Source: Eledone cirrhosa (taxonomy: Eukaryota). Taken from it: a stretch of DNA of 64,000 nucleotides. Under the pieces are notes generated by a model. The model saw only the letters and a program-made list of their open reading frames with translations. It had not been told where the DNA came from and did no database searches. This document shows, one piece after another, positions 3,625 through 64,000 of the stretch. Each line of letters begins with the position of its first letter. Positions within the stretch are counted from its first letter, which is position 1. The position numbers and the translations under genes were made by a program. Where the stretch lies: assembly GCA_964016885.1 (NCBI GenBank), contig OZ024754.1:39184001-39248000 (forward strand), written 5' to 3'.

Positions 3625-4362
3625 ACCCAGTACACTCTGTAAAGTGGTAATCCCATGATAAAATGTATTTTGTACACTCTGTAAAGTGGTAGTGTCATGA
3701 TAAAATGTATTTTGTACACCTTGTAAAGTGGTAGTGACATGATAAAATGTATTTTGTACACTCTGTAAAGTGGTAGGGTCATGATAAAATGTATTTTGTA
3801 CACTGTAAAGTGGTAGTGTCATATTAAAATGTATTTTGTACACTCTGTAAAGTGGTAGTGCTATGATAAAATGTAGCCAGTACACTCTGAAAAGTGGTAC
3901 TGCTGGTTATAAGAAAAATACACCTTCAGCACACTCTGTTTATTTGGTAGAGTTGGTGCCATGAAAAAACATACCCAGTACACTCTGTAAAATGGTAGTT
4001 TGTGCTATGAAAAAAACACACCCATAGAGTTGGTGTTACGAAAAAATATACCCCTACTACACTCTGTTTATGTGGTAGTCTGGTGCCATGAAAAAAACAC
4101 ACCCAGTACGCTCTGCAAAGTGGTAGTGCTTGTGTCACAAAAAACACACCCAGTACGCTCAGCAAAGTGGTATTGCTTGTGTCACAAAAATACACCCTGT
4201 ACGCTCTGCAAAGTGGTATTGGTTGTGTCACAAAACACACCCAGTACGCTCTGCAAAGTGGTAGTGGTTGTGTCACAAAACACACCCAGTACGCTCTGCA
4301 AAGTGGTAGTGGTTGTGTCACAAAACACACCCAGTACCCTCTGCAAAGTGATGGTGCTGGTA
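3625..4362 (+). repeat. 42-46-bp diverged tandem repeat of the TACACTCTGTAAAGTGGT module
   Basis: The unit drifts along the array. Related arrays lie at ~14655-15012 (-) and 20110-20520. Confidence 0.85.
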
Positions 4363-7170: not shown

Positions 7171-7433
7171 AGCATGGCGTCCGACCCTCTACCGATACTG
7201 CCAATCCACCACCCTAGCATGGCGTCCGACCCTCTATCGATACTGCCAATCCACCACCCTAGCATGGCGTCCGACCCTCCACCGATACTGCCAATCCACC
7301 ACCCTAGCATGGCGTCCGACCCTCCACCGATACTGCCAATCCACCACCCTAGCATGGCATCCGACCCTCCACCGATACTGCCAATCCACCACCCTAGCAT
7401 GGCGTCCGACCCTCCACCGATACTGCCAATCCA
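7171..7433 (-). repeat. 45-bp tandem repeat (6 copies) of the SINE B head
   Basis: AGCATGGCGTCCGACCCTCCACCGATACTGCCAATCCACCACCCT starting at 7171, 7216, 7261, 7306, 7351 and 7396. Confidence 0.92.
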
Positions 7434-11649: not shown

Positions 11650-13757
11650 TGGTTAAGTCCTAGAAATACCTGTGTTATGGTGGTTAAGTCCCTAGAAACA
11701 CCTGTGTTATGGTGGTTAAGTCCCTAGAAATACCTGTGTTATGGTGGTTAAGTCCTAGAAATACCTGTGTTATGGTGGTTAAGTCCTAGAAATACCTGTG
11801 TTATGGTGGTTAAGTCCCTAGAAATACCTGTTATGGTGGTTAAGTCCTAGAAATACCTGTGTTATGGTGGTTAAGTCCCTAGAAACACCTGTGTTATGGT
11901 GGTTAAGTCCCTAGAAATACCTGTGTTATGGTGGTTAAGTCCTAGAAATACCTGTGTTATGGTGGTTAAGTCCTAGAAATACCTGTGTTATGGTGGTTAA
12001 GTCCTAGAAATACCTGTTATGGTGGTTAAGTCCCTAGAAATACCTGTTATGGTGGTTAAGTCCCTAGAAATACCTGTGTTATGGTGGTTAAGTCCCTAGA
12101 AATACCTGTGTTATGGTGGTTAAGTCCTAGAAATACCTGTGTTATGGTGGTTAAGTCCCTAGAAATACCTGTTATGGTGGTTAAGTCCTAGAAATACCTG
12201 TGTTATGGTGGTTAAGTCCCTAGAAATACCTGTGTTATGGTGGTTAAGTCCTAGAAATACCTGTTATGGTGGTTAAGTCCCTAGAAATACCTGTGTTATG
12301 GTGGTTAAGTCAATAGAAATACCTGTGTTATGGTGGTTAAGTCAATAGAAACACCTGTGTTATGGTGGTTAAGTCCCTAGAAATACCTGTGTTATGGTGG
12401 TTAAGTCCCTAGAAATACCTGTGTTATGGTGGTTAAGTCCCTAGAAATACCTGTGTTATGGTGGTTAAGTCCTAGAAATACCTGTTATGGTGGTTAAGTC
12501 CCTAGAAATGCCTGTGTTATGGTGGTTAAGTCCCTAGAAACACCTGTGTTATGGTGGTTAAGTCCTAGAAATACCTGTGTTATGGTGGTTAAGTCCCTAG
12601 AAATACCTGTGTTATGGTGGTTAAGTCCTAGAAATACCTGTGTTATGGTGGTTAAGTCCCTAGAAATACCTGTGTTATGGTGGTTAAGTCCCTAGAAATA
12701 CCTGTGTTATGGTGGTTAAGTCCTAAAAATACCTGTGTTATGGTGGTTAAGTCCTAGAAATACCTGTGTTATGGTGGTTAAGTCCCTAGAAATACCTGTG
12801 TTATGGTGGTTAAGTCCCTAGAAATACCTGTGTTATGGTGGTTAAGTCCCTAGAAATACCTGTGTTATGGTGGTTAAGTCCCTAGAAATACCTGTGTTAT
12901 GGTGGTTAAGTCCTAAAAATACCTGTGTTATGGTGGTTAAGTCCCTAGAAATACCTGTGTTATGGTGGTTAAGTCCCTAGAAATACCTGTGTTATGGTGG
13001 TTAAGTCCCTAGAAATACCTGTGTTATGGTGGTTAAGTCCCTAGAAATACCTGTGTTATGGTGGTTAAGTCCCTAGAAATACCTGTGTTATGGTGGTTAA
13101 GTCCTAGAAATACCTGTGTTATGGTGGTTAAGTCCTAGAAATACCTGTGTTATGGTGGTATAGTCCTAGAAATACCTGTGTTATGGTGGTATAGTCTTAG
13201 AAATACCTGTGTTATGGTGGTATAGTCCTAGAAACACCTGTGTTATGGTGGTTAAGTCCTAGAAACACCTGTGTTATGGTGGTTAAGTCCCTAGAAACAC
13301 CTGTGTTATGGTGGTATAGTCCTAGAAACACCTGTGTTATGGTGGTATAGTCCTAGAAACACCTGTGTTATGGTGGTATAGTCCTAGAAACACCTGTGTT
13401 ATGGTGGTTAAGTCCTAGAAACACCTGTGTTATGGTGGTTAAGTCCCTAGAAACACCTGTGTTATGGTGGTATAGTCCTAGAAACACCTGTGTTATGGTG
13501 GTTAAGTCCTAGAAACACCTGTGTTATGGTGGTATAGTCCTAGAAATACCTGTGTTATGGTGGTATAGTCCTAGAAATACCTGTGTTATGGTGGTATAGT
13601 CCTAGAAACACTGTTATGGTGGTTAAGTCCTAGAAACACCTGTGTTATGGTTGTATAGTCTTAGAAACACTTGTGCTATGGTGGTTAAGTCCTAGAAATA
13701 CCTGTGTTATGGTGGTGTAGTTTTAGAAATACCTGTGTTATGGTGGTTTAGTCCAAG
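11650..13757. repeat. 29-32-bp minisatellite, roughly 65 copies
   Basis: Unit TGTGTTATGGTGGTTAAGTCC(C)TAGAAATACC. Confidence 0.95.
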
Positions 13758-15416
13758 ACACACCTTCAAAGTAATGCCCCAGTATGGCCAGAGTCTAATG
13801 AGTAAAATCAATAAAATAATATATATTTTCAGTATGTTTTTCACATGAATATTATCTAGAACAAGAATGCAAAGATTTGTGGTTGGGTATATTTTTTTTC
13901 AGATCTGATTTTAATTATAGAGGCTGCACAAAGCCAATTAATTATACACTTTAAATTAATTTATAATGGTAAAAAAGCTATGTATTTTTAGAATGAACCA
14001 TAAAAAACATATCTACGAGTCTGGATGTTTTGTTGGAAATCTTTTCCAAGCCACCACCGAGACAAAACTGGTTTGATTTAGTCGAGCAAGAAAAATGTTC
14101 ACTTTAGCTATATTTGTACACAACAATAAATAATACAAGTTAGAGAGACAGAGAGAGAGACATAGTATTTTTTTTAAGAGCTTATATTTGAAATCAATAT
14201 AGAGGGACCAAGAAATCTATGTTTGCCAAGTAACCATTGATTAACAAATCGGGTTATCTGGAGAACATAACAATAAATAGCGTGTTGTTTGTAATTATAC
14301 AGTTCTGAAAGAAAGGAAACAAAAAATCCTTCTTCTCAGATGTGACAATTAGTTGTGATAATGTGACCATTATTATTGCATATACTGGAAAGTGATTAAT
14401 GTTAGGAAGGGCATCCAATCATATCAACCCCAGTACTTATTTTTTTCATGTACTGGTACATATTTTATCGATTTCTTTTTGTCAAGCTGCACACGCACAC
14501 ACAAGAATGTGTTTAAAATAGCGAATAAGGAAAATGAATAGGACAGCAAGGGCCTATGCCATGCAGACAAGTTAGGTCAATTGACCGTGTCCTGCTTACA
14601 CAGAACTGTTTCTGGCATGGTTTCTACGACTGGATGCTCTTCCTAACGCCAACCACATTTACAGTGTAGTCTGGCCGCTTTCTGTCATGTCACCAACATG
14701 ACCCCTTTACAGTGTGGTCTGGGCGCTTTCTGTCATGGTACCAACATGACCACTTTATAGTGTGGTCTGGGCGCTTTCTGTCATGGCACCAACATGACCA
14801 CTTCACAGTGTGGGTTGGATGCTTTTTGTCATGACACCTACAGAACCAACAAACAGTGTGGATTGGGCATGTTTTGTTATGTCACCAACATGACTACTTT
14901 ACAGTGTGGACTGAGCGTTTTTTGATATGTCATCAATACAACTACTTTACAGTGTAGACTGGGCGTTTTTTGTCATGTCACCAACATGACTATTTTACAG
15001 TGTGATCTGGGCCTATTAAATACAATCTAGTGTGGAAGAAAAGGTCAGTTGAGACTAAAAAATAATTATAAATTTAGGCACAAGGCCAGCAATTTTGGTG
15101 CAGCGGGCGAGGGGTTGTCTATTATATCGACCCAGTATTTGAATGGTTCTTTATCTTATCCCCCCCCCCCCACCTGAATGAATGAAAAGCAAATATGACC
15201 TTGGTCAGATTTAAACTCGGTTCAAACAAAACAATGAGCAGTGCATTGACATTGTTTATCTATTGTAGCAATAGTAATAATGGCTAGCTTTGTTTTAGGC
15301 ACAGTAGTAGATGATCAAAGGCCAAGAGGCCTCCATATGGCTGCACCAGCCCATCCCACCCTTCCACTTCTCACAAATATGCAGATAAGAGAACAGCTTT
15401 GATAGTTTCAGTTTAA

Positions 15417-15749: not shown

Positions 15750-17150
15750 CATCATCATCATCATCATTGTTGTTGTTGTTGTTTTAACGTCTGCTTTCCC
15801 TGCAAACAAGGGTTGAACAGGTCTTCATACACCAAGTCAGTACTGAAGCAGATTCATTGATCTTCCAGGCAGGCCAGGGATCTTTATGTATGGTCAACAC
15901 TTCACCAAGTGCTCAGGAGAGGCTGTCATGTCCTCCTAACCCTTTTGTTTGGCAAGATTTCTACGGCTAGATGCCCTTCCTATCACCAGCCACTTTATAG
16001 CATATACTGGGTGCATTTATTGTGTAGATCACCAAAGACTAGGGTGGCTGTCGAGTCCTCATGACCTTTCATTTGGCAGATCCTCCACGGCTGAATGCCC
16101 TTCCCATCACCAACCACTTCACAGGTGGGGAGGGGGGCATACATGGTGAGGTTGAAGTAGTGATGTTGAGGATAACTGTTGGGGAGTGCTACAGTAGTCA
16201 AGGCCCATGTTTCACTGCCATATAGCATATCAGTTCGCACACAGGCATCATACAGTCTACCCTCCACTCTCAGAAATAGTATTTTGTTGTTAGCAGTGGT
16301 AATAGATCTCTAAACTTCTTTCAGTCTGTTCTTATCCTAGCTATCACATTTTCAGCACATCCTCCCCCACTACTAATTTGATTGCCTAGGTAACGAAAGC
16401 TGTAAACAACTTCTATGGAGTTCCCCTGGCAACTGAGGAAATCTATTTCATGTGTGTTCTTTGTGCTTACTTGCCCTGTGCATCTGCTGCATACAAAGTC
16501 TATCTTTTCCATTAACCCTTTAGTATTTACATTACTCTATATATACTATTGTATTTTCAGCATAAAGGCTTTATTTCTCATAATATCTCACATGATATTG
16601 GATTTATGAGATTTTGATATTATTTATTTTGAGAACAATACCTTAACATCAGTATGAGTGGCCAGCTACAGCCGGTTTGAACAGAAAGAGGTGAGAGAAT
16701 TCTGGCTGGATATGGCTGGTTTAAATGCTAAAGAGTTAACCTACCTGGAATCCTACTACATCTCTTGTGTGTCCATAATTCATATTGTGAGCACCTTATG
16801 GAATATCTGTCCACCCCTTTCTGACATATCAAACAAGGTCACTTTTCTGATCATATCACCTTCCTATCTTCTTTTCTACTTATTAAAACTTTTGTCTTTG
16901 ATAAATTTACTTTCAGACCCCTCAGCTCTAGGTTCTTCTTCCATGCTTGAAATTTTGCTTTCAAATCTCCTACAGATTCAGCCATGAGGAATAGATCGTC
17001 AGCATATAGGAGCTCCCATGGAGTGCCATTTTTAAACTCCTCAGTGATGGCCTGAAGCATACAATGGTAAACAGAAGTGTACTAATGAATGATCCCTGGT
17101 GGACTCCCACTGTACTCATTGCCAACTCTCACTCTGCTAGTTGCTCTTCT
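15750..17150 (-). mobile_element. Degenerate RTE LINE copy interrupted by a TTAA MITE
   Basis: ORF pieces LQAITEEFKNGTPWELLYADD, SFRYLGNQISSGGGC and GRLYDACVRTDMLYGSETW match the 24864 copy. Boundaries are approximate. Confidence 0.85.
16516..16735. mobile_element. piggyBac-like MITE inside the RTE LINE
   Basis: TTAA flanks; same body as the 15417 copy. Confidence 0.85.
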
Positions 17151-18921: not shown

Positions 18922-20109
18922 ACTTGCACACACGGTCTCAGACACACTCGCATATACACACACACACTTGCATATACAAACACACACACCACTTCTCTCT
19001 CTCCCCATATCCCTCAATATTGCTGTCCCCCATCTCTCTCTTTATCCCTCACTATTGCTGCCCCCCCCTCTCTCTCTCCTTATTCCTCACTATTGCTGCC
19101 CCCCTCTCTCTCCTTATTCCTCACTATTGCTGTCCCTATCTCCCTCTCATTAACAGGTCTCTACATAAATATTTTGCTACCCTCCTCTCTTTCCCTACTT
19201 TTTCTTCATCCATCTTTCTTTATCTCTGCCCCTCTCCTTCTATCTACAGCCCCCCCCCCGTTCCCTTCCGATTTCTCCCCCCCCCCTCTCTCCCTGGTCT
19301 CCTTCTCTCTCCCTCCTCCTTTCTCCTCTCCGTATGCTCTTCACCTGATACTAAGCTACTTCTCAATATCCCAATTATTTGTTGTCCAGAAGTTCGTTAG
19401 ATATTAACGAACTGTTTTGAAACATATCCGTTATAATACATCTGCTGGCCATTAGGCCACATTTATTGCCTTGGCTTCTATCAACTGTGGCCTTGCTAAT
19501 TATATATGATTTATGGAGGGCTTATAAATAATACATGTTCTGTCCATGATGTATTTACAGCTAATATGATTTAGGTAGGGCTTACAGGTGTGTGTGATAT
19601 ATTTAGAGGCAACACGATTCATGTAGGTCTTATAGGCATATATGTGTGTGTGTGTGTGTGTGTGTGTCATCTAGAAACGATCGTAAAGCAGTGAAGTATA
19701 TCTCTAATGACTTTATATATATCTATATATAGATATATATATATGAAAAGATTCAGGACCCCCGATGGCTGAGCTCTGGCTGTTTCGAAAGCTAAATCCG
19801 AAACTTTTCATACTACCTACTCTACTACCCGAAGTATCGAGTACTCTGGTGGATTATGGTCTAGCTGGTTTTTACCACACCCTATCTGATATATATATCA
19901 GAGGTAGACCACGAAAAACATGGGTGAAGGTGGTGAGAGCAGACCTCAGATCGCTGAAGCTCACAGTGGAGATGACGAAGGACCGTGATAAGTGGAGAGA
20001 TGCTGTGCTGAATAGGACCCGTCCCACCCTTGCAAGCAGGGAAAAGCGGACGTAAAATGATGATGATATATATATATAGTGGTCATTTTGGTGCCATGAC
20101 AAAAAGCTC

Positions 20110-20520
20110 CCAGTCCACACTGTAACGCTGTCATGTAGGTGTCACAACAAAAAGCGCCCAGGTCCACACTGTAAATTGGTCGTGCTGGTTTCACCACAAA
20201 AAGCGCCCAGGTCCACACTGTAAATTGGTCGTGCTGGTGTCACCACAAAAAGCGCCCAGGTCCACACTGTAAATTGGTCGTGCTGGTGTCACCACAAAAA
20301 GCGCCCAGGTCCACACTGTAAATTGGTCGTGCTGGTGTCACCACAAAAAGCGCCCAGGTCCACACTGTAAATTGGTCGTGCTGGTGTCACCACAAAAAGC
20401 GCTCAGGCCCACACTGTAAATCGGTCGTGCTGGTGTCACCACAAAAAGCGCCCACTCCACACTGTAAGGTGGTCGTGTTGGTGTTATGACAAAAGGCACT
20501 CAGCCCACCCTGTAAATGTG
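20110..20520 (+). repeat. 49-bp tandem repeat of the CACACTGTAAA module
   Basis: Unit CCCAGGTCCACACTGTAAATTGGTCGTGCTGGTGTCACCACAAAAAGCG. Confidence 0.9.
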
Positions 20521-24673: not shown

Positions 24674-24863
24674 GGAATGAGTAGGACCCCGACGGCTGAG
24701 CTCAAGCCGTTTCGACGGCTAATTCTGGACTAAAAGTCCTACTCGTCGGGGTCCTACTCGTTCCTATTTCCCACTCTACTACCCTAAGTATTGAGTACTT
24801 GGGTGCATTATGGTCCATCTGGTTCCTTACCACATTTTCTTTGTTATATATATATATATATAT

Positions 24864-26257
24864 CAGGCTATAACAGAGGAGTTCAAGACCGGCTGCCCAT
24901 GGGAACTCCTATACGCAGACGACTTGACACTCATAGCGGAATCAATGGCCGAGCTAGAGAAGAAATTCCAAACATGGAAGCACGGCCTAGAATCAAAAGG
25001 CCTTAAAATTAACCTGGCTAAGACTAAAGTTCTAGTTTGTAGGAAAGAAAATAAGGCGGCAGTCCCTTCTGGGAAATGGTCATGCTCGGTGTGTAGGAAA
25101 GGCGTAGGTAGAAACTCCATTTTATGTCCTAAATGCAAAGTATGGGTGCATAAAAGATGTAGTGGGATCACAGGTAAGCTAACTAAGAACATAGATTTTA
25201 CATGTGGCTGGTGTTCTGGTGCAATAAGTAGCAGCAAGTGCCCACAAAATACTAGCTCTTTCAATTGCGCAGAGGGTTCTATAGAAATAGTGGACAGTTT
25301 CCGTTACCTGGGTGATAAAATCAGCAGTGGGGGAGGGTGCTCTGAAAGTACAGTAGCTAGAGTCAGAACTGGTTGGAAAAAGTTCAGAGAGCTTATACCA
25401 CTATTAGCTGCTAAAGGGTTCTCCCTAAAAATGAAAGGCAGGTTGTACGATGCCTGCATACGAACAGCAATGTTGCATGGCAGTGAGACCTGGGCATTGT
25501 GTGCAGAGGATATACGCAGACTAGAGAGGAACGAAGCTTGCATGCTCCGCTGGATGTGTAACAGTAATATACGTGAACGGCAAAGCATAAACGAACTAAG
25601 GAAAAAATTAGAAATAAGAGGGATCAGATGATGTTTACTCGAGAGAAGGCTACGTTGGTATGGACACGTGATGCGCATGAAAGTCGATAGCTGTATAACA
25701 AAGTGCAGGGCAATAAAGATAGACGGTAGCCACGGAATAGGCAGACCTAGAAAAACCTGGGACGAGCTGATAAACTCCGACCTCACACACTTACACCTCT
25801 CCAAGACAATGTCACTGGACCGAGACCTTTGGCGGTACTCAGTAACAGAGAAGACCCGCCTTACCTAAATACATAGTAAAACCTACTACAGCCAGTAGGC
25901 ATATCTAACAAAATAACCCCCCCCCCCCCTGTCCCACCACCCCCACCCCGTCCACACCACCCCGTTCTATGTAAAGTTATGTTGGTGCCACACCATCCAG
26001 GCCGAAACAAATGAGATCGTGTAGGTGTCACGACAAAAAAACACACAGTCCACGCTGTAATGTGGCCGTGTAGGCAACACGGTAAAAACCTCCCAGACCC
26101 ACACTGTAAATGTGGTTGGTGTTAGGAAGGGCATCCAACTGTAGAAAACCTGCCAGACAGTCCTATGCGAGCAAGACAATCACTCTTGCCTCAAGTGGGA
26201 CTACCCCCGTCCAAACCCATGCAAGCGTGGAACACGGACGTTAAACGTTGATGATGA
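24864..26257 (+). mobile_element. 5'-truncated RTE-clade LINE: C-terminal RT with inserted PHD-type finger, 3' UTR and (GAT)n tail
   Basis: WELLYADD, KINLAKTKV, FRYLG, RRLRWYGHV and GRPRKTW motifs lie in one frame (24864-25868) with a single in-frame TGA at 25629; ends in ggacgttaaacgttgatgatgat. Confidence 0.92.
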
Positions 26258-27275: not shown

Positions 27276-28250
27276 AAGTGAACACCTTAACCATACAGCT
27301 ATACCTGTACCTATGTTGTGAAGTGAACACCTTAACTACATAGCCATACCAACACCTATGTTGTGAAGTGAACACCTTAACCACACAACCATACCTGTAC
27401 CTATGTTGTGAAGTGAACACCTTAACCACACAGTCATGCCTGTACCTATGTTGTGAAGTGAACACCTTAACCACACAGCCATGCCTGTACCTATGTTGTG
27501 AAGTGAACACCTTAACTACATAGCCATACCAACACCTATGTTGTGAAGTGAACACCTTAACCACACAACCATACCTGTACCTATGTTGTGAAGTGAACAC
27601 CTTAACTACATAGCCATACCAACACCTATGTTGTGAAGTGAACACCTTAACCACACAACCATACCTGTACCTATGTTGTGAAGTGAACACCTTAACCACA
27701 CAGCCATACTACACCTATGTTGTGAAGTGAACACCTTAACCACACAGTCATGCCTGTACCTATGTTGTGAAGTGAACACCTTAACCACACAGCCATGCCT
27801 GTACCTATGTTGTGAAGTGAACACCTTAACCACACAGCCATACTACACCTATGTTGTCAAGTGAACACCTTAACCACACAGCCATGCCTGTACCTATGTT
27901 GTCAAGTGAACACCTTAACCACACAGCCATATCTACACCTATGTTGTGAAATGAACACCTTAACCACACAGCCATTCCTACACCTATGTTGTGAAGTGAA
28001 CACCTTAACCACACAGCCATACCTACACCTATGTTGTGAAGTGAACACCTTAACCACACAGCCATACCTACACCTATGTTGTGAAGTGAACACCTTAACC
28101 ACACAGCCATATCTACACCTATGTTGTCAAGTGAACACCTTAACCACACAGCCATACCTACACCTATGTTGTGAAGTGAACACCTTAACCACACAGCCAT
28201 ACCTGTACCTATGTTGTGAAGTGAACACCTTAACCACACAGCCATACTAC
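27276..28250 (-). repeat. 45-bp minisatellite (~21 copies) resembling a SINE 5' head
   Basis: Unit AAGTGAACACCTTAACCACACAGCCATACCTGTACCTATGTTGTG. Confidence 0.92.
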
Positions 28251-28508
28251 ACCGATGTTATACACTGAACTCCTTAACCATACTTTGGGCATAAAATAAA
28301 ATATATTAAAACTGTTATCTCTATCTTTTAGTTTATAATTATTAATGAAATAGAATTAAGTATGTACATGTTTATTCAATAAAGGAAGACCATAACTATC
28401 AAGGTTCTATATTTAGAATTTCACTTTGTATTTGGATTGTGTTTCCTCTCAAGTATTATATTTTTGTGCTACAACATTTGCAAAGTATTGACCTATATAT
28501 ATTCTGAT

Positions 28509-30462: not shown

Positions 30463-30630
30463 GAATTTTACAAAGAACCATTTTATGAATCTTTTGAAGC
30501 TACCCCATTACTGGCTGCCATCTTAACCTACCTTAGTTACAGCTTGTTAACAATCGTAGGTCACATTCGAGAATGGCTACAAATGGCCGGATTGCAGAAG
30601 TCCCACATGCTCAAGGAACCAAAACAAGAC
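30463..30630 (+). CDS. SPTLC2: Serine palmitoyltransferase catalytic subunit, first coding exon seen (168 bp, phase 0/0)
   Basis: Polypyrimidine tract and AG at 30461-62; encodes EFYKEPFYESFEATPLLAAILTYLSY...EPKQD; GTAAGT donor at 30631. Resembles the LCB2 N-terminal FxExFExTP region. Confidence 0.9.
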
Positions 30631-42502: not shown

Positions 42503-42657
42503 GATTTTGTTCCCCTCTATCAAAGCTGGGAAAGTTTCTACACTAGAAACCTGTATCGAAGAATAAGTGATTGTTGGAATCGTCCAGTTTGTACGGCTCC
42601 AGGAGCAGAAATAGATGTCTTAGAACGGGTATCTCCAGACTTTGGTTGGAACTGGAA
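42503..42657 (+). CDS. SPTLC2: SPTLC2-like coding exon (155 bp, phase 0/2)
   Basis: tttttAG acceptor; encodes [51 protein letters not shown]; GTAAGC donor. FYTRNLY..I.D.WNRP is a conserved LCB2 motif. Confidence 0.95.
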
Positions 42658-45011
42658 GTAAGCTTTCATTTTTGATATTGAATTTATATTTAGATTTTAA
42701 ACATTCTTCACTTGTGTTCTTTATATATATTATATATATATATAATATATATACATACACACACACACACACACACACACTTGTGTGTTTATAATAATAA
42801 TAATAATGAAATTATTGTGTACAGTGCTCAGGTGCACTACAACTCATCAAAGGTGCATGTATAGTACATAGAATAATGTACAAATGTCAGGAAAATGAAC
42901 AGTGTATGAGTCATGATATAATAATAATAATAATAATAATAATGAAATATTGTGTACAGTGCCCAGGTGCACCACAACTCATCAAAAAAGTGCATGTACA
43001 TACAGTACATAGGGCAATGCACAAACATCAGTAAAATGAACAGTGCACGAGTCATGATACACACATGTGTGCATGTGTATGGAAGGGGTACATCAGGTAT
43101 AGTTTTGGCGTATTTCGGGAAGCATGAGTGTCTTAAAGGATGCAGTGTCTCGGCAGCTAACAATTGACGCAGGCAGTTTGTTCCATGCTTCAGCAACTCT
43201 GAGCGATATTTAATTATTGTAATGGGATATTATTTTAAGATAAGGCCACAAAATTTATATGAAATATTATATACTGGTGGATCTATAATATTTAATAACT
43301 TGGACCCTGTACTGCCGAGTTCCTCCACAAGATCGGAATGTTGGCGGGGGGCCCATCTGAGGAAGGAGCCCCACAAGATGAGGTGGCTGTTGCAGCGGTG
43401 TCATTGGCCATTGTCTGCGGGGCACAGGCCCATTACCGCTATGCCCTAGGCCCAGAGCTCAATCCCCCCTCCCCATCCTTCTGTAACACAAGAGCCCTTG
43501 CCATTCCTTTCCTTTTCCGTTTTTTTTTCTTTATATTTTCTTATTTTACATTACATTCTCTCTTCTCAATCTAAATTTTCTTTTTTTTTTTTTTTTCTTT
43601 TTCTATTAAATTGTATTTACATGATATAATTTTACTTAGGAAAAAAAAATTTAATAACTGAGATATAATTTTAAGATGAGGTTACAAAATTTATATTAAA
43701 ATATTATATACTGATGTGTTTATATTTAAGAACTGCAATGGGATATAATTTTAATATGAGGTTACAAAGTTCAAATATATATATATATAACATTTAAAAT
43801 TTGTGCTTGTGTCATCATCATCATCATCATCATCATTTAACATCTATTTTCCATGCTAAATAATATCTTTAAGTTTATTATATTAATACAGCACAATAAC
43901 ATTTCATACATTCTTGAGTTTTTTTTATAATTTCAAATGTTTGTGTGTTTGTTTTTATGTGTGTGTATATATTCGTGTGGGTGTGTTTAACTGTTGAGAC
44001 GTGGGTGTGGAAGATCAGTACTCATGATTCTTTCCAAAGTCTCCAAGACTGTAATGGGGTGGGGAGAGGTAGGAAAGAAAGTATCGTTGAATCAAATCTC
44101 CAAATGCTTGCGACAGATTATACTCTACTAAAGACATCCAACAACCATGTTGGGGTGTTAAGCTGGGTGACAGGTTAAGTCAGCCACTGGAGTAGGCCAC
44201 ACTGGGATTTGAACTCAGAACGCAAAGAGCCAGAACTGACACTCTAACAATTTCGCCACTCCACTGCATATGTATCTAGTTTAGAATAGGTGCATCATGA
44301 CTCTGTATATCATAGGGTTATGGTAAAATCTCCTTCGGTCACGAACAACCATGGGTTTTGCACCTAGTCCCTCTCCAAAGCACAAGTCTAGGCAATGTTT
44401 TTTGTTTGTTTTTTTGTTGTTTTTTTGTGTGTGGAAGACCAGCAGTCACCCATGCATACCAGTCTCTCCTCTCCATGCCACCAATGTTGTCCAAGGGAAA
44501 GGCAATGGCCAATACAGCTTGGCACCAGGGACATTGCAACTCATTTCTACAGCTGAGTAAATTGGAGCAACGTGAAATAAAATGTCTTGCTCAAGGATAC
44601 AACACATTGCTCGGTCCAGGAATCAAACTCATGACCTCGTGATTGTGAATCCCACATTCTAACCACTTAACTACATCTCATGAGAAGTGACTAAAAGGGT
44701 TGGTGTCCGGATGAACATAAAACATTGCCCCAAAATATCATGTCCAACCCATGCCAATATGAAATGATGATGATGATCGTGATTGCTTTAGACTGGTACT
44801 ATATTATAACAACTTTGAATGAATGAAAGGTTGAGTTGACCAGGGCAGAATTTGAACTCAGAGTGTTGTGAGCTAGAACAAATACTGCAAGGCCTCATGT
44901 TCCATGTTGGGATTTCATCAGTGACTGAGCATCTTTTTAACTCTCCAACTGGCTATAAATCTATAGATATAGTCTGTAGTACAGTACCATTTGGGGACCT
45001 TCCCATGGATT

Positions 45012-46496
45012 GTCCTTCCTATCACCAACACTAGGACAGTTGACATGTCTTTGACTCAACTGAAGAGTCCTTCCTATCACCAACACTAGGACAGTTGACA
45101 TGTCTTTGACTCAACTGAAGAGTCCTTCCTATCACCAACACTAGGGCAGTTGTCATGTCTTTGACACAACTGAAGAGTCCTTCCTATCACCAACACTAGG
45201 ACAGTTGACATGTCTTTGACTCAACTGAAGGGTCCTTCCTATCACCAACACTAGGGCAGTTGACATGTCTTTGACTCAACTGAAGAGTCCTTCCTATCAC
45301 CAACACTAGGACAGTTGACATGTCTTTGACTCAACTGAAGGGTCCTTCCTATCACCAACACTAGGGCAGTTGACATGTCTTTGACTCAACTGAAGAGTCC
45401 TTCCTATCACCAACACTAGGGCAGTTGTCATGTCTTTGACTCAACTGAAGAGTCCTTCCTATCACCAAAACTAGGACAGTTGACATGTCTTTGACTCAAC
45501 TGAAGGGTCCTTCCTATCACCAACACTAGGACAGTTGACATGTCTTTGACTCAACTGAAGAGTCCTTCCTATCACCAACACTAGGACAGTTAACATGTCT
45601 TTGACTCAACTGAAGGGTCCTTCCTATCACCAACACTAGGGCAGTTGACATGTCTTTGACTCAACTGAAGAGTCCTTCCTATCACCAACACTAGGGCAGT
45701 TGACATGTCTTTGACACAACTGAAGAGTCCTTCCTATCACCAACACTAGGGCAGTTGACATGTCTTTGACACAACTGAAGGGTCCTTTCTATCACCAACA
45801 CTAGGGCAGTTGACATGCCTTTGACTCAACTGAAGGGTCCTTTCTATCACCAACACTAGGACAGTTGACATGTCTTTGACTCAATTGAAGAGTCCTTCCT
45901 ATCACCAACACTAGGGCAGTTGACATGTCTTTGACTCAACTGAAGAGTCCTTCCTATCACCAACACTAGGACAGTTGACATGTCTTTGACTCAACTGAAG
46001 AGTCCTTCCTATCACCAACACTAGGACAGTTGACATGTCTTTGACTCAACTGAAGAGTCCTTCCTATCACCAACACTAGGACAGTTGACATGTCTTTGAC
46101 TCAACTGAAGAGTCCTTCCTATCACCAACACTAGGGCAGTTGACATGTCTTTGACTCAACTGAAAAGTCCTTCCTATCACCAACACTAGGACAGTTGACA
46201 TGTCTTTGACTCAACTGAAGAGTCCTTCCTATCACCAACACTAGGGCAGTTGACATGTCTTTGACACAACTGAAGAGTCCTTCCTATCACCAACACTAGG
46301 ACAGTTGACATGTCTTTGACTCAACTGAAGAGTCCTTCCTATCACCAACACTAGGGCAGTTGACATGTCTTTGACACAACTGAAGAGTCCTTCCTATCAC
46401 CAACACTAGGGCAGTTGACATGTCTTTGACACAACTGAAGGGTCCTTTCTATCACCAACACTAGGGCAGTTGACATGTCTTTGACTCGAAGGGTCC
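45012..46496. repeat. 54/55-bp minisatellite (~27 copies)
   Basis: Unit GTCCTTCCTATCACCAACACTAGG(A/GG)CAGTTGACATGTCTTTGACTCAACTGAAGA. Confidence 0.95.
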
Positions 46497-46809: not shown

Positions 46810-47954
46810 CTGTACTATGTACAGGTGATATGGTTCACTACTGTACTATGTACAGGTGATATGGTTCACTACTGTACTATGTACAGGTGATATGGTTCAC
46901 TACTGTACTATGTACAGGTGATATGGTTCACTACTGTACTATGTACAGGTTATATGGTTCACTACTGTACTATGTACAGGTGATATGGTCCACTACTGTC
47001 CTATGTACAGGTGATATGGTCCACTACTGTCCTATGTACAGGTGATATGGTCCACTACTGTCCTATGTACAGGTGATATGGTCCACTACTGTCCTATGTA
47101 CAGGTTATATGGTTCACTACTGTACTATGTACAGGTGATATGGTCCACTACTGTCCTATGTACAGGTGATATGGTTCACTACTGTACTATGTACAGGTGA
47201 TATGGTCCACTACTGTCCTATGTACAGGTGATATGGTCCACTACTGTACTATGTACAGGTGATATGGTTCACTACTGTACTATGTACAGGTGATATGGTC
47301 CACTACTGTACTATGTACAGGTGATATGGTCCACTACTGTACTATGTACAGGTGATATGGTCCACTACTGTACTATGTACAGGTGATATGGTTCACTACT
47401 GTACTATGTACAGGTGATATGGTTCACTACTGTACTATGTACAGGTGATATGGTTCACTACTGTCCTATGTACAGGTGATATGGTTCACTACTGTACTAT
47501 GTACAGGTGATATGGTTCACTACTGTACTATGTACAGGTGATATGGTCCACTACTGTCCTATGTACAGGTGATATGGTTCACTACTGTCCTATGTACAGG
47601 TGATATGGTTCACTACTGTCCTATGTACAGGTGATATGGTTCACTACTGTACTATGTACAGGTGATATGGTTCACTACTGTACTATGTACAGGTGATATG
47701 GTTCACTACTGTCCTATGTACAGGTGATATGGTTCACTACTGTCCTATGTACAGGTGATATGGTTCACTACTGTACTATGTACAGGTGATATGGTTCACT
47801 ACTGTACTATGTACAGGTGATATGGTTCACTACTGTACTATGTACAGGTGATATGGTTCACTACTGTACTATGTACAGGTGATATGGTCCACTACTGTAC
47901 TATGTACAGGTGATATGGTCCACTACTGTACTATGTACAGGTGATATGGTTCAC
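46810..47954. repeat. 31-bp minisatellite (~37 copies)
   Basis: Unit CTGTACTATGTACAGGTGATATGGTTCACTA. Confidence 0.95.
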
Positions 47955-48442
47955 TTCACAGTTGCTACTGTTTGGCTGGTAAAACAGAAACATTCAACTG
48001 ATATGTCAATACCACAACTAACACTACCACTACTACAACAACCAACACTACCATTACTGCAACCACCAACACCACTACAACTACAACCACCAACACTACA
48101 ACCACCACCACAACCTCCAACATCAGCACCATTGCCCACCCCACCCTCTAACTTATTTCAACACTATCCAAATCTAGTGCAGGAGACTCTACACTGTTGC
48201 TTACCCTGTTAAAAATAACAGCTAAATCTTCCTCAAATCACAGCCTACTAGCTTTAAAAAATAGAAAAAGAAAGGCCCCATTACCTAACACAGTGATAGT
48301 TACACTATCTAAATATAAGATGAACTGCCACAATCCACCTAGGTGTCTAGGTACCCAGTCATGTTATCTGCAATACACTACTAACCTATCCTATGTTAGC
48401 GGGGTCACACCAAATGGTTTGTGGTATTTGTTTTGACATTTT

Positions 48443-50110: not shown

Positions 50111-50256
50111 TTTGACCGGGAAGAAGAAAAGAGTGATGAATTTTGGTTCCTATAACTATCTTGGGTTTGGTCAAAACTACGGCCAGTGTACTGATGATGT
50201 CCAAGCCATCATAGAATCTCACGGAGTTGGTTCTTGTGCCAGTCGTCATGGCTTAG
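50111..50256 (+). CDS. SPTLC2: SPTLC2-like coding exon (146 bp, phase 2/1)
   Basis: ttctAG acceptor; encodes LTGKKKRVMNFGSYNYLGFGQNYG...VGSCASRHGL; GTAAAT donor. Contains the GSYNYLGF motif. Confidence 0.95.
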
Positions 50257-53727: not shown

Positions 53728-53852
53728 GTTTACTCGATATCCACATGGAACTGGATCAAACTGTAGCAGACTTTTTGGGAGTGGAAGCAGCCATTACTTT
53801 TCCAATGGGTTTTGCTACGAATTCTATGAACATACCTTGTCTTGTTACTAAG
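53728..53852 (+). CDS. SPTLC2: SPTLC2-like coding exon (125 bp, phase 1/0)
   Basis: tcttcAG acceptor; encodes [41 protein letters not shown]; GTGGGT donor. Contains the MGFATNS motif. Confidence 0.95.
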
Positions 53853-59284: not shown

Positions 59285-59378
59285 GGTTGTTTGATAATCA
59301 GTGATGAACTCAACCACGCTTCCTTGGTTCTTGGTTCACGGCTGACTGGAGCTACCATCCGTGTCTTTAAACATAACA
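59285..59378 (+). CDS. SPTLC2: SPTLC2-like coding exon (94 bp, phase 0/1)
   Basis: tttcAG acceptor; encodes [31 protein letters not shown]; GTAAGT donor. Contains the SDELNHAS and FKHN motifs. Missed by the ORF track. Confidence 0.95.
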
Positions 59379-61678: not shown

Positions 61679-61784
61679 ATATGGTATCGTTAGAAAAAAT
61701 CTTGAAGCAAGCTGTGGTCGAGGGGCAGCCTAGAACACATCAGCCATGGAAAAAAATCCTCGTTGTCTGTGAGGGTATTTACAG
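61679..61784 (+). CDS. SPTLC2: SPTLC2-like coding exon (106 bp, phase 1/2)
   Basis: ttttacAG acceptor; encodes [34 protein letters not shown](S); GTAAAC donor at 61785. Confidence 0.95.
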
Positions 61785-62008
61785 GTAAACAAATCAATAA
61801 ATATTGTCTGTGAGAGTATTTACAGGTAAATAAATCAATAAATATTGTCTGTGAGGGTATTTACAGGTAAACAAATCAATAAATATTGTCTGTGAGAGTA
61901 TTTACAGGTAAATAAAACAATAAATATTGTCTGTGAGGGTATTTGCAGGTAAATAAATCAATAAATATTGTCTGTGAGGGTATTTACAGGTAAATAAAAC
62001 AATAAATA
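61763..62008 (+). repeat. 41-bp tandem repeat (6 copies) spanning an exon end and splice donor
   Basis: Unit TTGTCTGTGAGGGTATTTACAG|GTAAACAAATCAATAAATA. Confidence 0.95.
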
Positions 62009-62381
62009 TACTGAAATAGTGTCTGAAGGTATAAACGCACACATACACACACACACACACAGAAACAATATACACTTCAACATACACACACATGCTCATA
62101 TACACATTAACATACTAACACATACACAATATACTCACACACACACTACATGCTCACACAATACATACACAATACACTCACTCATACTCACACACACACA
62201 TATTCACTCATACAATACATACACATGCACAATACTCACACACACACACACACATATACACAGAATGAAAGTTGTTTTAGAAGATATCTCATCCATGTAA
62301 AAATGCAGAAATGAATATTTTTTAACAAAAATTTCTAAAGTAAAAAATAAAAATTTATTTCTCCCTTTTTATCTGTTTTAG

Positions 62382-62601
62382 TATGGAAGGCTCCATCTGT
62401 CGACTTCCCGAAATTGTCCACTTAAAGAAAAAGTACAAGGCTTATTTGTATCTTGATGAAGCTCACAGTATTGGTGCCATTGGAGACAGTGGTAGAGGGG
62501 TCTGTGAATATTTTGGAGTTGATCCAAATGACGTTGATATTATGATGGGAACATTTACTAAAAGCTTTGCTTCAGCTGGTGGATATATTGGTGGATCAAA
62601 G
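62382..62601 (+). CDS. SPTLC2: SPTLC2-like coding exon with the PLP-binding lysine (220 bp, phase 2/0)
   Basis: ttttAG acceptor; encodes [12 protein letters not shown]...[10 protein letters not shown]...[22 protein letters not shown]; Lys codon at 62560-62562; GTAATA donor at 62602. The catalytic Lys distinguishes SPTLC2/3 from SPTLC1. Confidence 0.97.
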
Positions 62602-63759
62602 GTAATAAAGCAATCTTAGGTTTTTATATTTCCAAATGGGATATATTGGTGGATCAAAGGTAATAAAGCAATCTTAGGTTTTTATATTTCCAAATGGGAT
62701 ATATTGGTGGATCAAAGGTAATGAGACAATCTTAGGTTTTATATTTCCAAATGGGATATATTGGTGGATCAAAGGTAATAAAGCAATCTTAGGTTTTTAT
62801 ATTTCCAAATGGGATATATTGGTGGATCAAAGGTAATAAAGCAATCTTAGGTTTTTATATTTCCAAATGGGATATATTGGTGGATCAAAGGTAATAAAGC
62901 AATCTTAGGTTTTTATATTTCCAAATGGGATATATTGGTGGATCAAAGGTAATGAGACAATCTTAGGTTTTATATTTCCAAATGGGATATATTGGTGGAT
63001 CAAAGGTAATAAAGCAATCTTAGGTTTTTATATTTCCAAATGGGATATATTGGTGGATCAAAGGTAATAAAGCAATCTTAGGTTTTTATATTTCCAAATG
63101 GGATATATTGGTGGATCAAAGGTAATAAAGCAATCTTAGGTTTTTATATTTCCAAATGGGATATATTGGTGGATCAAAGGTAATGAGACAATCTTAGGTT
63201 TTATATTTCCAAATGGGATATATTGGTGGATCAAAGGTAATAAAGCAATCTTAGGTTTTTATATTTCCAAATGGGATATATTGGTGGATCAAAGGTAATA
63301 AAGCAATCTTAGGTTTTTATATTTCCAAATGGGATATATTGGTGGATCAAAGGTAATAAAGCAATCTTAGGTTTTTATATTTCCAAATGGGATATATTGG
63401 TGGATCAAAGGTAATGAGACAATCTTAGGTTTTATATTTCCAAATGGGATATATTGGTGGATCAAAGGTAATAAAGCAATCTTAGGTTTTTATATTTCCA
63501 AATGGGATATATTGGTGGATCAAAGGTAATAAAGCAATCTTAGGTTTTTATATTTCCAAATGGGATATATTGGTGGATCAAAGGTAATAAAGCAATCTTA
63601 GGTTTTTATATTTCCAAATGAGATATATTGGTGGATCAAAGGTAATGAGACAATCTTAGGTTTTATATTTCCAAATGGGATATATCTCTGGATCAAAGGT
63701 AATGAGACAGTCTTAGGTTTTATATTTCCAAATGGGATATATCTGTGGATCAAAGGTAA
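62581..63759 (+). repeat. 57/58-bp tandem repeat (20 full copies plus a partial) spanning an exon end and splice donor
   Basis: Unit GGATATATTGGTGGATCAAAG|GTAATAAAGCAATCTTAGGTTTTTATATTTCCAAATG. Confidence 0.95.
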
Positions 63760-64000
63760 CAAGAAGGTGTGTGGCTTAGTGGTAAGGGTGTTAGACTTAC
63801 AATCATAATGTCATGGGTTTGATTCCTGGACTGAGTTGTGTGTTGTGTTCTTATGCAAAGCATTTCATTTCGCTCCAGTATAGTCAGATTGGTAACATAG
63901 ACATACTGGTGTAGGTACAATAGCCAGTCAGCTTGGTAACATAGACACTGGTGTAGGTACAATAGCCAGTCAGCTTGGTAACATAGACATACTGGTGTAG

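Follow-up and report, generated by a model that had tools for sequence, protein, structure and literature searches.

A donor-spanning minisatellite of the human F7 type in the octopod SPTLC2 gene

Minisatellites whose first unit lies across an exon-intron boundary have been described in several human genes. In F7, the first unit of the 37-bp VNTR of intron 7 spans the exon 7 boundary, and the most upstream donor alone is used, even when the later donors are raised to the consensus value of 91 (PMC1557585). Among 50 clones per transfection, none showed use of a downstream donor; once the first donor is mutated, splicing moves to the following site (PMC1557585). As summarised in that article, the first monomers in IFI6 (6-16) intron 2, CBS intron 13, LMNB2, and PDGF intron 4 also span the donor, with many pseudo-donors. 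Two pseudo-donors are also used in IFI6 and CBS, and the authentic donor only in LMNB2 and PDGF. In ABCA7 intron 18, which carries a 25-bp VNTR, use of the second-unit donor is reported to give an out-of-frame, stop-containing, NMD-sensitive transcript that retains one unit, and this isoform is unchanged with VNTR length (PMC5954066). Variable repeats are also reported at exon-intron boundaries of duplicated human genes (PMC2812944), and tandem duplications are described as largely neutral and as under-represented in coding regions (PMC13167724). A catalogue of splicing-associated repeats (PMC10078293) has no bearing on the donor-spanning geometry. In the literature searched, which covered few subscription papers, neither a cephalopod case nor a genome-wide test of donor enrichment was found.

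Here, we describe an array of this type in octopod SPTLC2. Human genes already provide examples of the donor-spanning arrangement, to which the present array adds a mollusc case. The window, to which all coordinates refer, is the whole stretch of 64,000 nucleotides of Eledone cirrhosa DNA that was analysed. At 61763..62008 on the plus strand, six 41-bp units lie head to tail across a donor, the first on the real exon-intron boundary, and the donor is repeated in the intron. The F7 VNTR is alike in that its first unit spans the boundary and its donor is repeated as pseudo-sites. The two arrays are also similar in scale, with units of 37 bp in F7 and 41 bp in the octopod and with 5-9 and 6 copies, respectively. 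However, F7 repeats 4 exonic nucleotides and the octopod array 22, and some F7 pseudo-sites are free of a premature stop, whereas all of those in the octopod array give one. The mammalian VNTR is polymorphic and its upstream splicing has been demonstrated, whereas the mollusc array is known from the DNA of one haplotype. None of the IFI6, CBS, LMNB2, and PDGF cases is described in PMC1557585 as arrays on two adjacent exons, unlike octopod SPTLC2. The ABCA7 repeat unit, as reported, also contains the donor GT, but it begins at the GT with no exonic part, runs to 12-427 units, and influences whether the following exon is skipped (PMC5954066).

TRF places the array at 61763-62009, with a period of 41, 6.0 copies, 94% matches, and 0 indels. 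Each unit consists of 22 exonic and 19 intronic nucleotides and contains CAG/GTAAA (the slash marks the splice position), with the donor G at 61785, 61826, 61867, 61908, 61949, and 61990. A sequence-only reading had claimed this layout, these six donors, and partly alternating variants, and TRF and the comparison of units agree with it on each point. Four of the 41 columns vary, namely -11 (GAGAGG), -4 (AAAAGA), +6 (CTCTTT), and +10 (TTTATA); units 1 and 3 are identical, and the mean identity between units is 95.3%. This pattern suggests that the array is young and that two units were duplicated together in the past. A 23-nt pattern taken from unit 1 matches six times in the window, always within the array, and at least six matches were reached in 0 of 100 shuffles. 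The ends of the unit overlap by just 1 nt. Microhomology-mediated tandem duplication, as described in PMC13167724, is likewise a short local duplication, but the octopod unit has no clear microhomology arm. The codon at the 5' edge of unit 1 (61762-61764) is GTT (Val), and Ile is found in 15 of the 16 named homologues; with an ancestral ATT, the junction overlap would have been 2 nt. Just beyond the array, 62014..62032 (+) may be part of a seventh copy, shifted by 10 nt from the register of the units. The match is weak (score 21, equalled at 126 of 7165 window positions and in 48 of 5000 shuffles), and it may represent either a unit in decay or the partner in the original slippage.

The host gene is, by protein similarity, the octopod SPTLC2. 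Using tblastn with named octopod proteins, seven SPTLC2 exons were found in the window, all with AG..GT borders. When joined, they give 338 codons without a stop (0 stops), of which 316 are identical to the Argonauta protein (P0039). The array begins in the sixth of these, a 106-nt coding exon (61679..61784, +) defined by tblastn, its AG/GT borders, and the continuous frame; its final 22 nt form the exonic portion of unit 1. The authentic donor, CAG/GTAAAC at 61782..61790 (+), is in phase 2 and joins the next exon to give EGIY-S-MEG. The motif EG[IV]YSMEG, found in 16 of 16 named homologues checked, arises only from the donor at 61785 and the acceptor at 62382. The next exon (62382..62601, +; 220 nt) carries the motif GTFTKSF, the lysine of which we take to be the catalytic lysine that binds the PLP cofactor. 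This exon matches Pfam Aminotran_1_2 (PF00155; E 1.4e-11) and, among PDB entries, SPTLC2 (E 1.4e-35) far better than SPTLC1 (E 5e-16). Among the best 120 of 3887 matches, its nearest named relatives come from Argonauta hians and Octopus bimaculoides (both 95%) and from O. sinensis (93%), so the window belongs to an octopod distinct from all three. The exon sizes of 106 and 220 nt presumably correspond to human SPTLC2 exons 7 and 8. Five further exons lie upstream on the plus strand (30463-30630, 42503-42657, 50111-50256, 53728-53852, and 59285-59378; tblastn), and none of their splice sites carries an array. The first SPTLC2 coding exon did not turn up in the window (1-30462 upstream of the first mapped exon); either its intron exceeds 30 kb, or the exon has diverged beyond detection. 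No protein of the host species was among the best 120 of 3887 and the best 120 of 531 matches. Outside the named proteins, the closest of the matches listed is identical to the window SPTLC2 at 281 of 338 positions.

The five copies of the donor, delimited by comparison of the units (61823..61995, +), are close matches to donor 1. From -3 to +6, one is identical and four differ at +6 only. If any of them were used, the exon would become 147-311 nt long and would keep the TAA at 61786..61788 (+), which is in the reading frame of the exon; the protein would then end before the GTFTKSF lysine. The earlier claim that this in-frame TAA makes the downstream donors non-productive is thus upheld for every later donor. 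It is no special safeguard, however, because any phase-2 intron that begins with GTAA will have an in-frame TAA. The other phase-2 donor of the gene (42658), which carries no array, also starts with GTAA and has an in-frame TAA at 42659. In the exonic part of the copies, Gly is changed to Ser in units 2 and 4 and Tyr to Cys in unit 5, whereas unit 1 retains EGIY. Both changes are non-synonymous, as would be expected for non-coding copies.

Donor strength does not explain a choice of donor 1. When pairing was counted against what we take to be the motif at the 5' end of U1, donor 1 (GTAAAC) paired at 8 of 11 positions and four of the five copies (GTAAAT) at 9 of 11, with equal duplex energies. 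The copies therefore pair with U1 equally or better, as judged by pair counts and duplex energy. RNA structure was rejected as the cause as well. In predicted folding at 37 °C, the opening energy of donor 1 is 2.3-3.6 kcal/mol vs 2.0-3.3 kcal/mol for the copies, all six donors lying inside the range of the other donors of the gene (1.7-9.4 kcal/mol). At 15 °C, donor 1 is predicted to be the least open of the six. Donor 1 was no more open than the copies at either temperature with any span limit. Since neither strength nor structure favours donor 1, position remains as the likely rule by which donor 1 is chosen. The five spare splice signals are probably ignored, and nothing suggests that they are tuned.

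The best explanation, to which we assign a probability of about 0.75, is that the array is a young and probably neutral minisatellite of the F7 type, seeded by chance across a donor in a minisatellite-rich octopod genome. The first step would have been a duplication, in the DNA itself and with next to no microhomology, of a 41-bp segment (the last 22 nt of the exon and the first 19 nt of the intron). The array then grew, probably by slippage or unequal exchange, in a pattern that includes the duplication of units 1-2 into units 3-4. The 5'-most copy remains on the exon with conserved EGIY codons, and the other copies drift. If the rule seen in F7 applies, the spliceosome would pick the most upstream of equal donors and produce a normal mRNA. 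Any leak to a later donor would keep the TAA and stop before the catalytic lysine, and the transcript would probably be degraded, so that the cost would be a small loss of mRNA. The upstream-first step has two limits: the rule is established in mammalian cells only, and the next one or two donors are reported to be used as well in IFI6, CBS, and ABCA7 (PMC1557585, PMC5954066).

A second donor-spanning array is located on the next exon. It occupies 62581..63759 (+) and has 57/58-bp units, 21 donor copies, and a four-unit 231-bp higher-order repeat. The units follow a regular 58-58-57-58 pattern, the 231-bp unit shows 98% matches, the 57-bp variant is without AATAAA, and the most diverged units are the last ones. 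The likeness of the 41-bp and 58-bp units is confined to the donor and about ten intron bases (score 20, matched by 155 of 3000 shuffles). A common origin was rejected, as the exonic part of each array matches its own exon. The 41-bp unit had been called unrelated to its neighbour, and the same amplification of a donor was said to have arisen independently on adjacent exons; the first claim is essentially correct and the second is supported, with two separate donor-seeded minisatellites. The accompanying statement that two of seven donors, on adjacent exons, had seeded minisatellites is likewise accurate for the 41-bp and 58-bp arrays. The 58-bp array stops just past a GTAA. Sequence with tRNA-like A and B boxes, recognised by eye, follows at 63760-63880, a combination that we take to be the head pattern of a SINE. 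The original 3' flank of the array may have been replaced.

Two amplified donors in one gene raise the question of chance or bias. TRF returned 184 rows, which gave 62 clusters with a period of at least 20. One nested row was discarded along with 30 microsatellite-like clusters, and two array periods were set by hand; 31 complex minisatellites remained. Together they make up 19.4% of the window. Related sequence occurs elsewhere in the window for 18 of them and is absent for the other 13. As units of 13 of the 31 lack copies elsewhere in the window, local amplification is routine here. Complex arrays contain two of the seven SPTLC2 donors in the window and none of the seven acceptors. The sequence-only reading had named its own test, an excess over the overall minisatellite density. 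Within the window, such an excess does not appear, the probability of at least two of seven donors being 0.41 under raw coverage. This null is unfair, however, because an exon cannot sit deep within an array. In a seed model, every array was collapsed to one seed and the seeds were placed randomly, with 40,000 draws each. The probability of at least two of seven donors was then 0.015 for all 31 arrays, 0.004 for the 19 with at least 3 copies, and 0.001 for the strict set of 12 (at least 5 copies and 85% matches). Over all 14 junctions, the values were 0.056, 0.016, and 0.005, respectively. The rate in this model includes both donor arrays, the thresholds are post hoc, and the single window was chosen for its pattern; the donor excess is therefore suggestive and no more. 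At such rates, some windows of any large scan would display such a pair. Two arrays on adjacent donors are most likely a coincidence of modest improbability among many windows scanned.

The original argument for bias or survival is weaker than its observations. That the first unit is the real exon had been taken as a sign of bias or selection, but geometry forces it for any tandem duplication that spans a donor. The proposal that only arrays growing outward from the exon survive could explain why acceptors and exon interiors carry no array. It cannot yield a donor excess, because a survival filter only removes arrays and cannot lift donors above the intronic background; if the excess is real, a mutational bias is required. 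The separate donor-seeded arrays and the non-productive donors thus stand, whereas the bias and survival argument as made does not, and it left chance out. The window counts are suggestive in themselves, but they neither show nor exclude a junction bias of duplications.

The strongest rival is such a mutational bias, in which tandem duplications of this lineage arise preferentially at donors, for instance through transcription-coupled lesions, a step in chromatin or composition at exon ends, or 3'-end cleavage at an AATAAA near the start of the intron. We consider it unlikely, although several observations favour it and count against chance seeding. The first is the split between donors and acceptors, with seed-model probabilities low enough (0.015 to 0.001) that the coincidence is not comfortable. 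The 1-nt microhomology at the unit junction is also unlike the usual seed of slippage, which speaks against chance seeding. AATAAA occurs in the first 20 intron bases at both amplified donors and at none of the five remaining ones, an arrangement with a chance of 1 in 21; the background is 7 of 210 GTAA sites, and 25 of 217 and 35 of 763 in two AT-matched sets of GTR sites. The likeness of the two intron starts is as high at 12 of 425 GTAA sites for unit 2 and at 5 of 425 for unit 6, but the resemblance of unit 1 is ordinary (75 of 425). The 5' end of the 41-bp unit coincides with the base of a predicted 11-bp, G-U-rich RNA hairpin over the donor. This hairpin is weak, however (z -1.7 to -2.4; 8-31 of 500 shuffles), unremarkable as DNA (z -0.3 to +0.1), and not common to the 58-bp unit (z -1.2). 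All of these features were noticed afterwards in a single gene with two events. Three further complex arrays lie within the same 3.4 kb, and both donor arrays may share a locally active region, but the clustering is not significant (P=0.22) and a local hotspot was set aside. A DNA hairpin at the donor as the seed was also rejected. Donors 2, 4, and 6 each lie at the centre of a 7-bp inverted repeat, and a length of 7 is reached by 1 of 210 background GTAA sites; nevertheless, the sequence folds as DNA no better than shuffles, and the 58-bp donor is without an inverted repeat. The unit junctions contain neither poly(A) nor an exon-exon junction, so a spliced-mRNA template is out.

A more specific form of this rival is that donors closely trailed by AATAAA are preferred birthplaces of minisatellites in this octopod lineage, where co-transcriptional processing (U1 binding or 3'-end cleavage beside the donor) would mark the DNA for tandem duplication and many genes would have donor arrays through which mRNA leaks in a length-dependent manner. 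We regard this as a long shot. A genome-wide donor excess, if demonstrated, would tie the origin of minisatellites to RNA processing.

Equally improbable is a regulatory role, in which the number of units sets the leakage to non-productive donors or to intronic polyadenylation and thereby tunes SPTLC2 output. The copies equal or exceed donor 1 in their match to U1, every copy leads to a premature stop, and the 41-bp array contains 10 AATAAA. The second-unit donor of ABCA7 also gives an NMD-sensitive isoform, as reported in PMC5954066. However, the array is young (95% identity) and shows no sign of conservation or tuning. Furthermore, the ABCA7 isoform is described as independent of VNTR length, and downstream donor use remained undetected in the F7 clones (PMC5954066, PMC1557585).

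Splice-related origins of the array fare worse still. TTTACAG/GTAAA is present in each 41-bp unit, so that a CAG directly precedes the donor. Each unit could in principle hold a recursive splice site, or the array could be a relic of intron gain. Introns are reportedly gained through tandem duplication of an AGGT segment, and the duplicated octopod segment contains AG/GT. However, the octopod unit includes 19 intronic nucleotides with a stop, a new intron need not be invoked, and a 392-nt intron with its own acceptor remains when the extra units are subtracted. The internal AG also lacks a pyrimidine tract. Pyrimidines make up a share of 0.47 at -20..-4, and every one of the five copies has an upstream AG, whereas the seven real acceptors have 0.65-0.94 pyrimidine and an upstream AG in 0 of 7. 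An acceptor role of the internal AG was rejected on these features, and we consider both proposals very improbable. An assembly artefact is scarcely credible, because the substitutions are structured (an alternating pair, one private, and one common to units 4 and 6) with no indels, and the window is without any N.

Chance seeding, as the preferred reading, extends a known mammalian arrangement to a mollusc. Two adjacent exons of this housekeeping gene carry 6 and 21 near-identical donors, so the locus also lends itself as a natural experiment on whether the upstream-first rule extends beyond mammals. Donor usage in octopod SPTLC2 can be read by ordinary RNA-seq.

Two database models of octopod SPTLC2 look mis-annotated when judged against Argonauta and the window gene. 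In the O. bimaculoides model (P0040, 691 aa), some 190 residues of unrelated sequence stand in place of one exon; that of O. sinensis (P0041) is truncated, with 280 aa.

The window contains other repeats of several kinds. Long, homogeneous intronic minisatellites at 11650-13765, 27276-28280, 45012-46487, and 46810-47955 have units of 31-55 bp in 22-67 copies, and the units of these four have no copy elsewhere in the window. The arrays at 3627-4350, 7171-7433, 14652-15012, and 20099-20517 are made of dispersed repeats, with 3-11 related loci each in the window. A scan of 148 repeat-poor frames of at least 60 aa, which was insensitive and missed most of the known exons, returned only an SPTLC2 exon and two reverse-transcriptase fragments (Pfam RVT_1), at 24795-25628 (+) and 16854-17081 (-). 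The fragment at 24795-25628 has a PHD finger in frame directly after it and is probably the remnant of a non-LTR retroelement.
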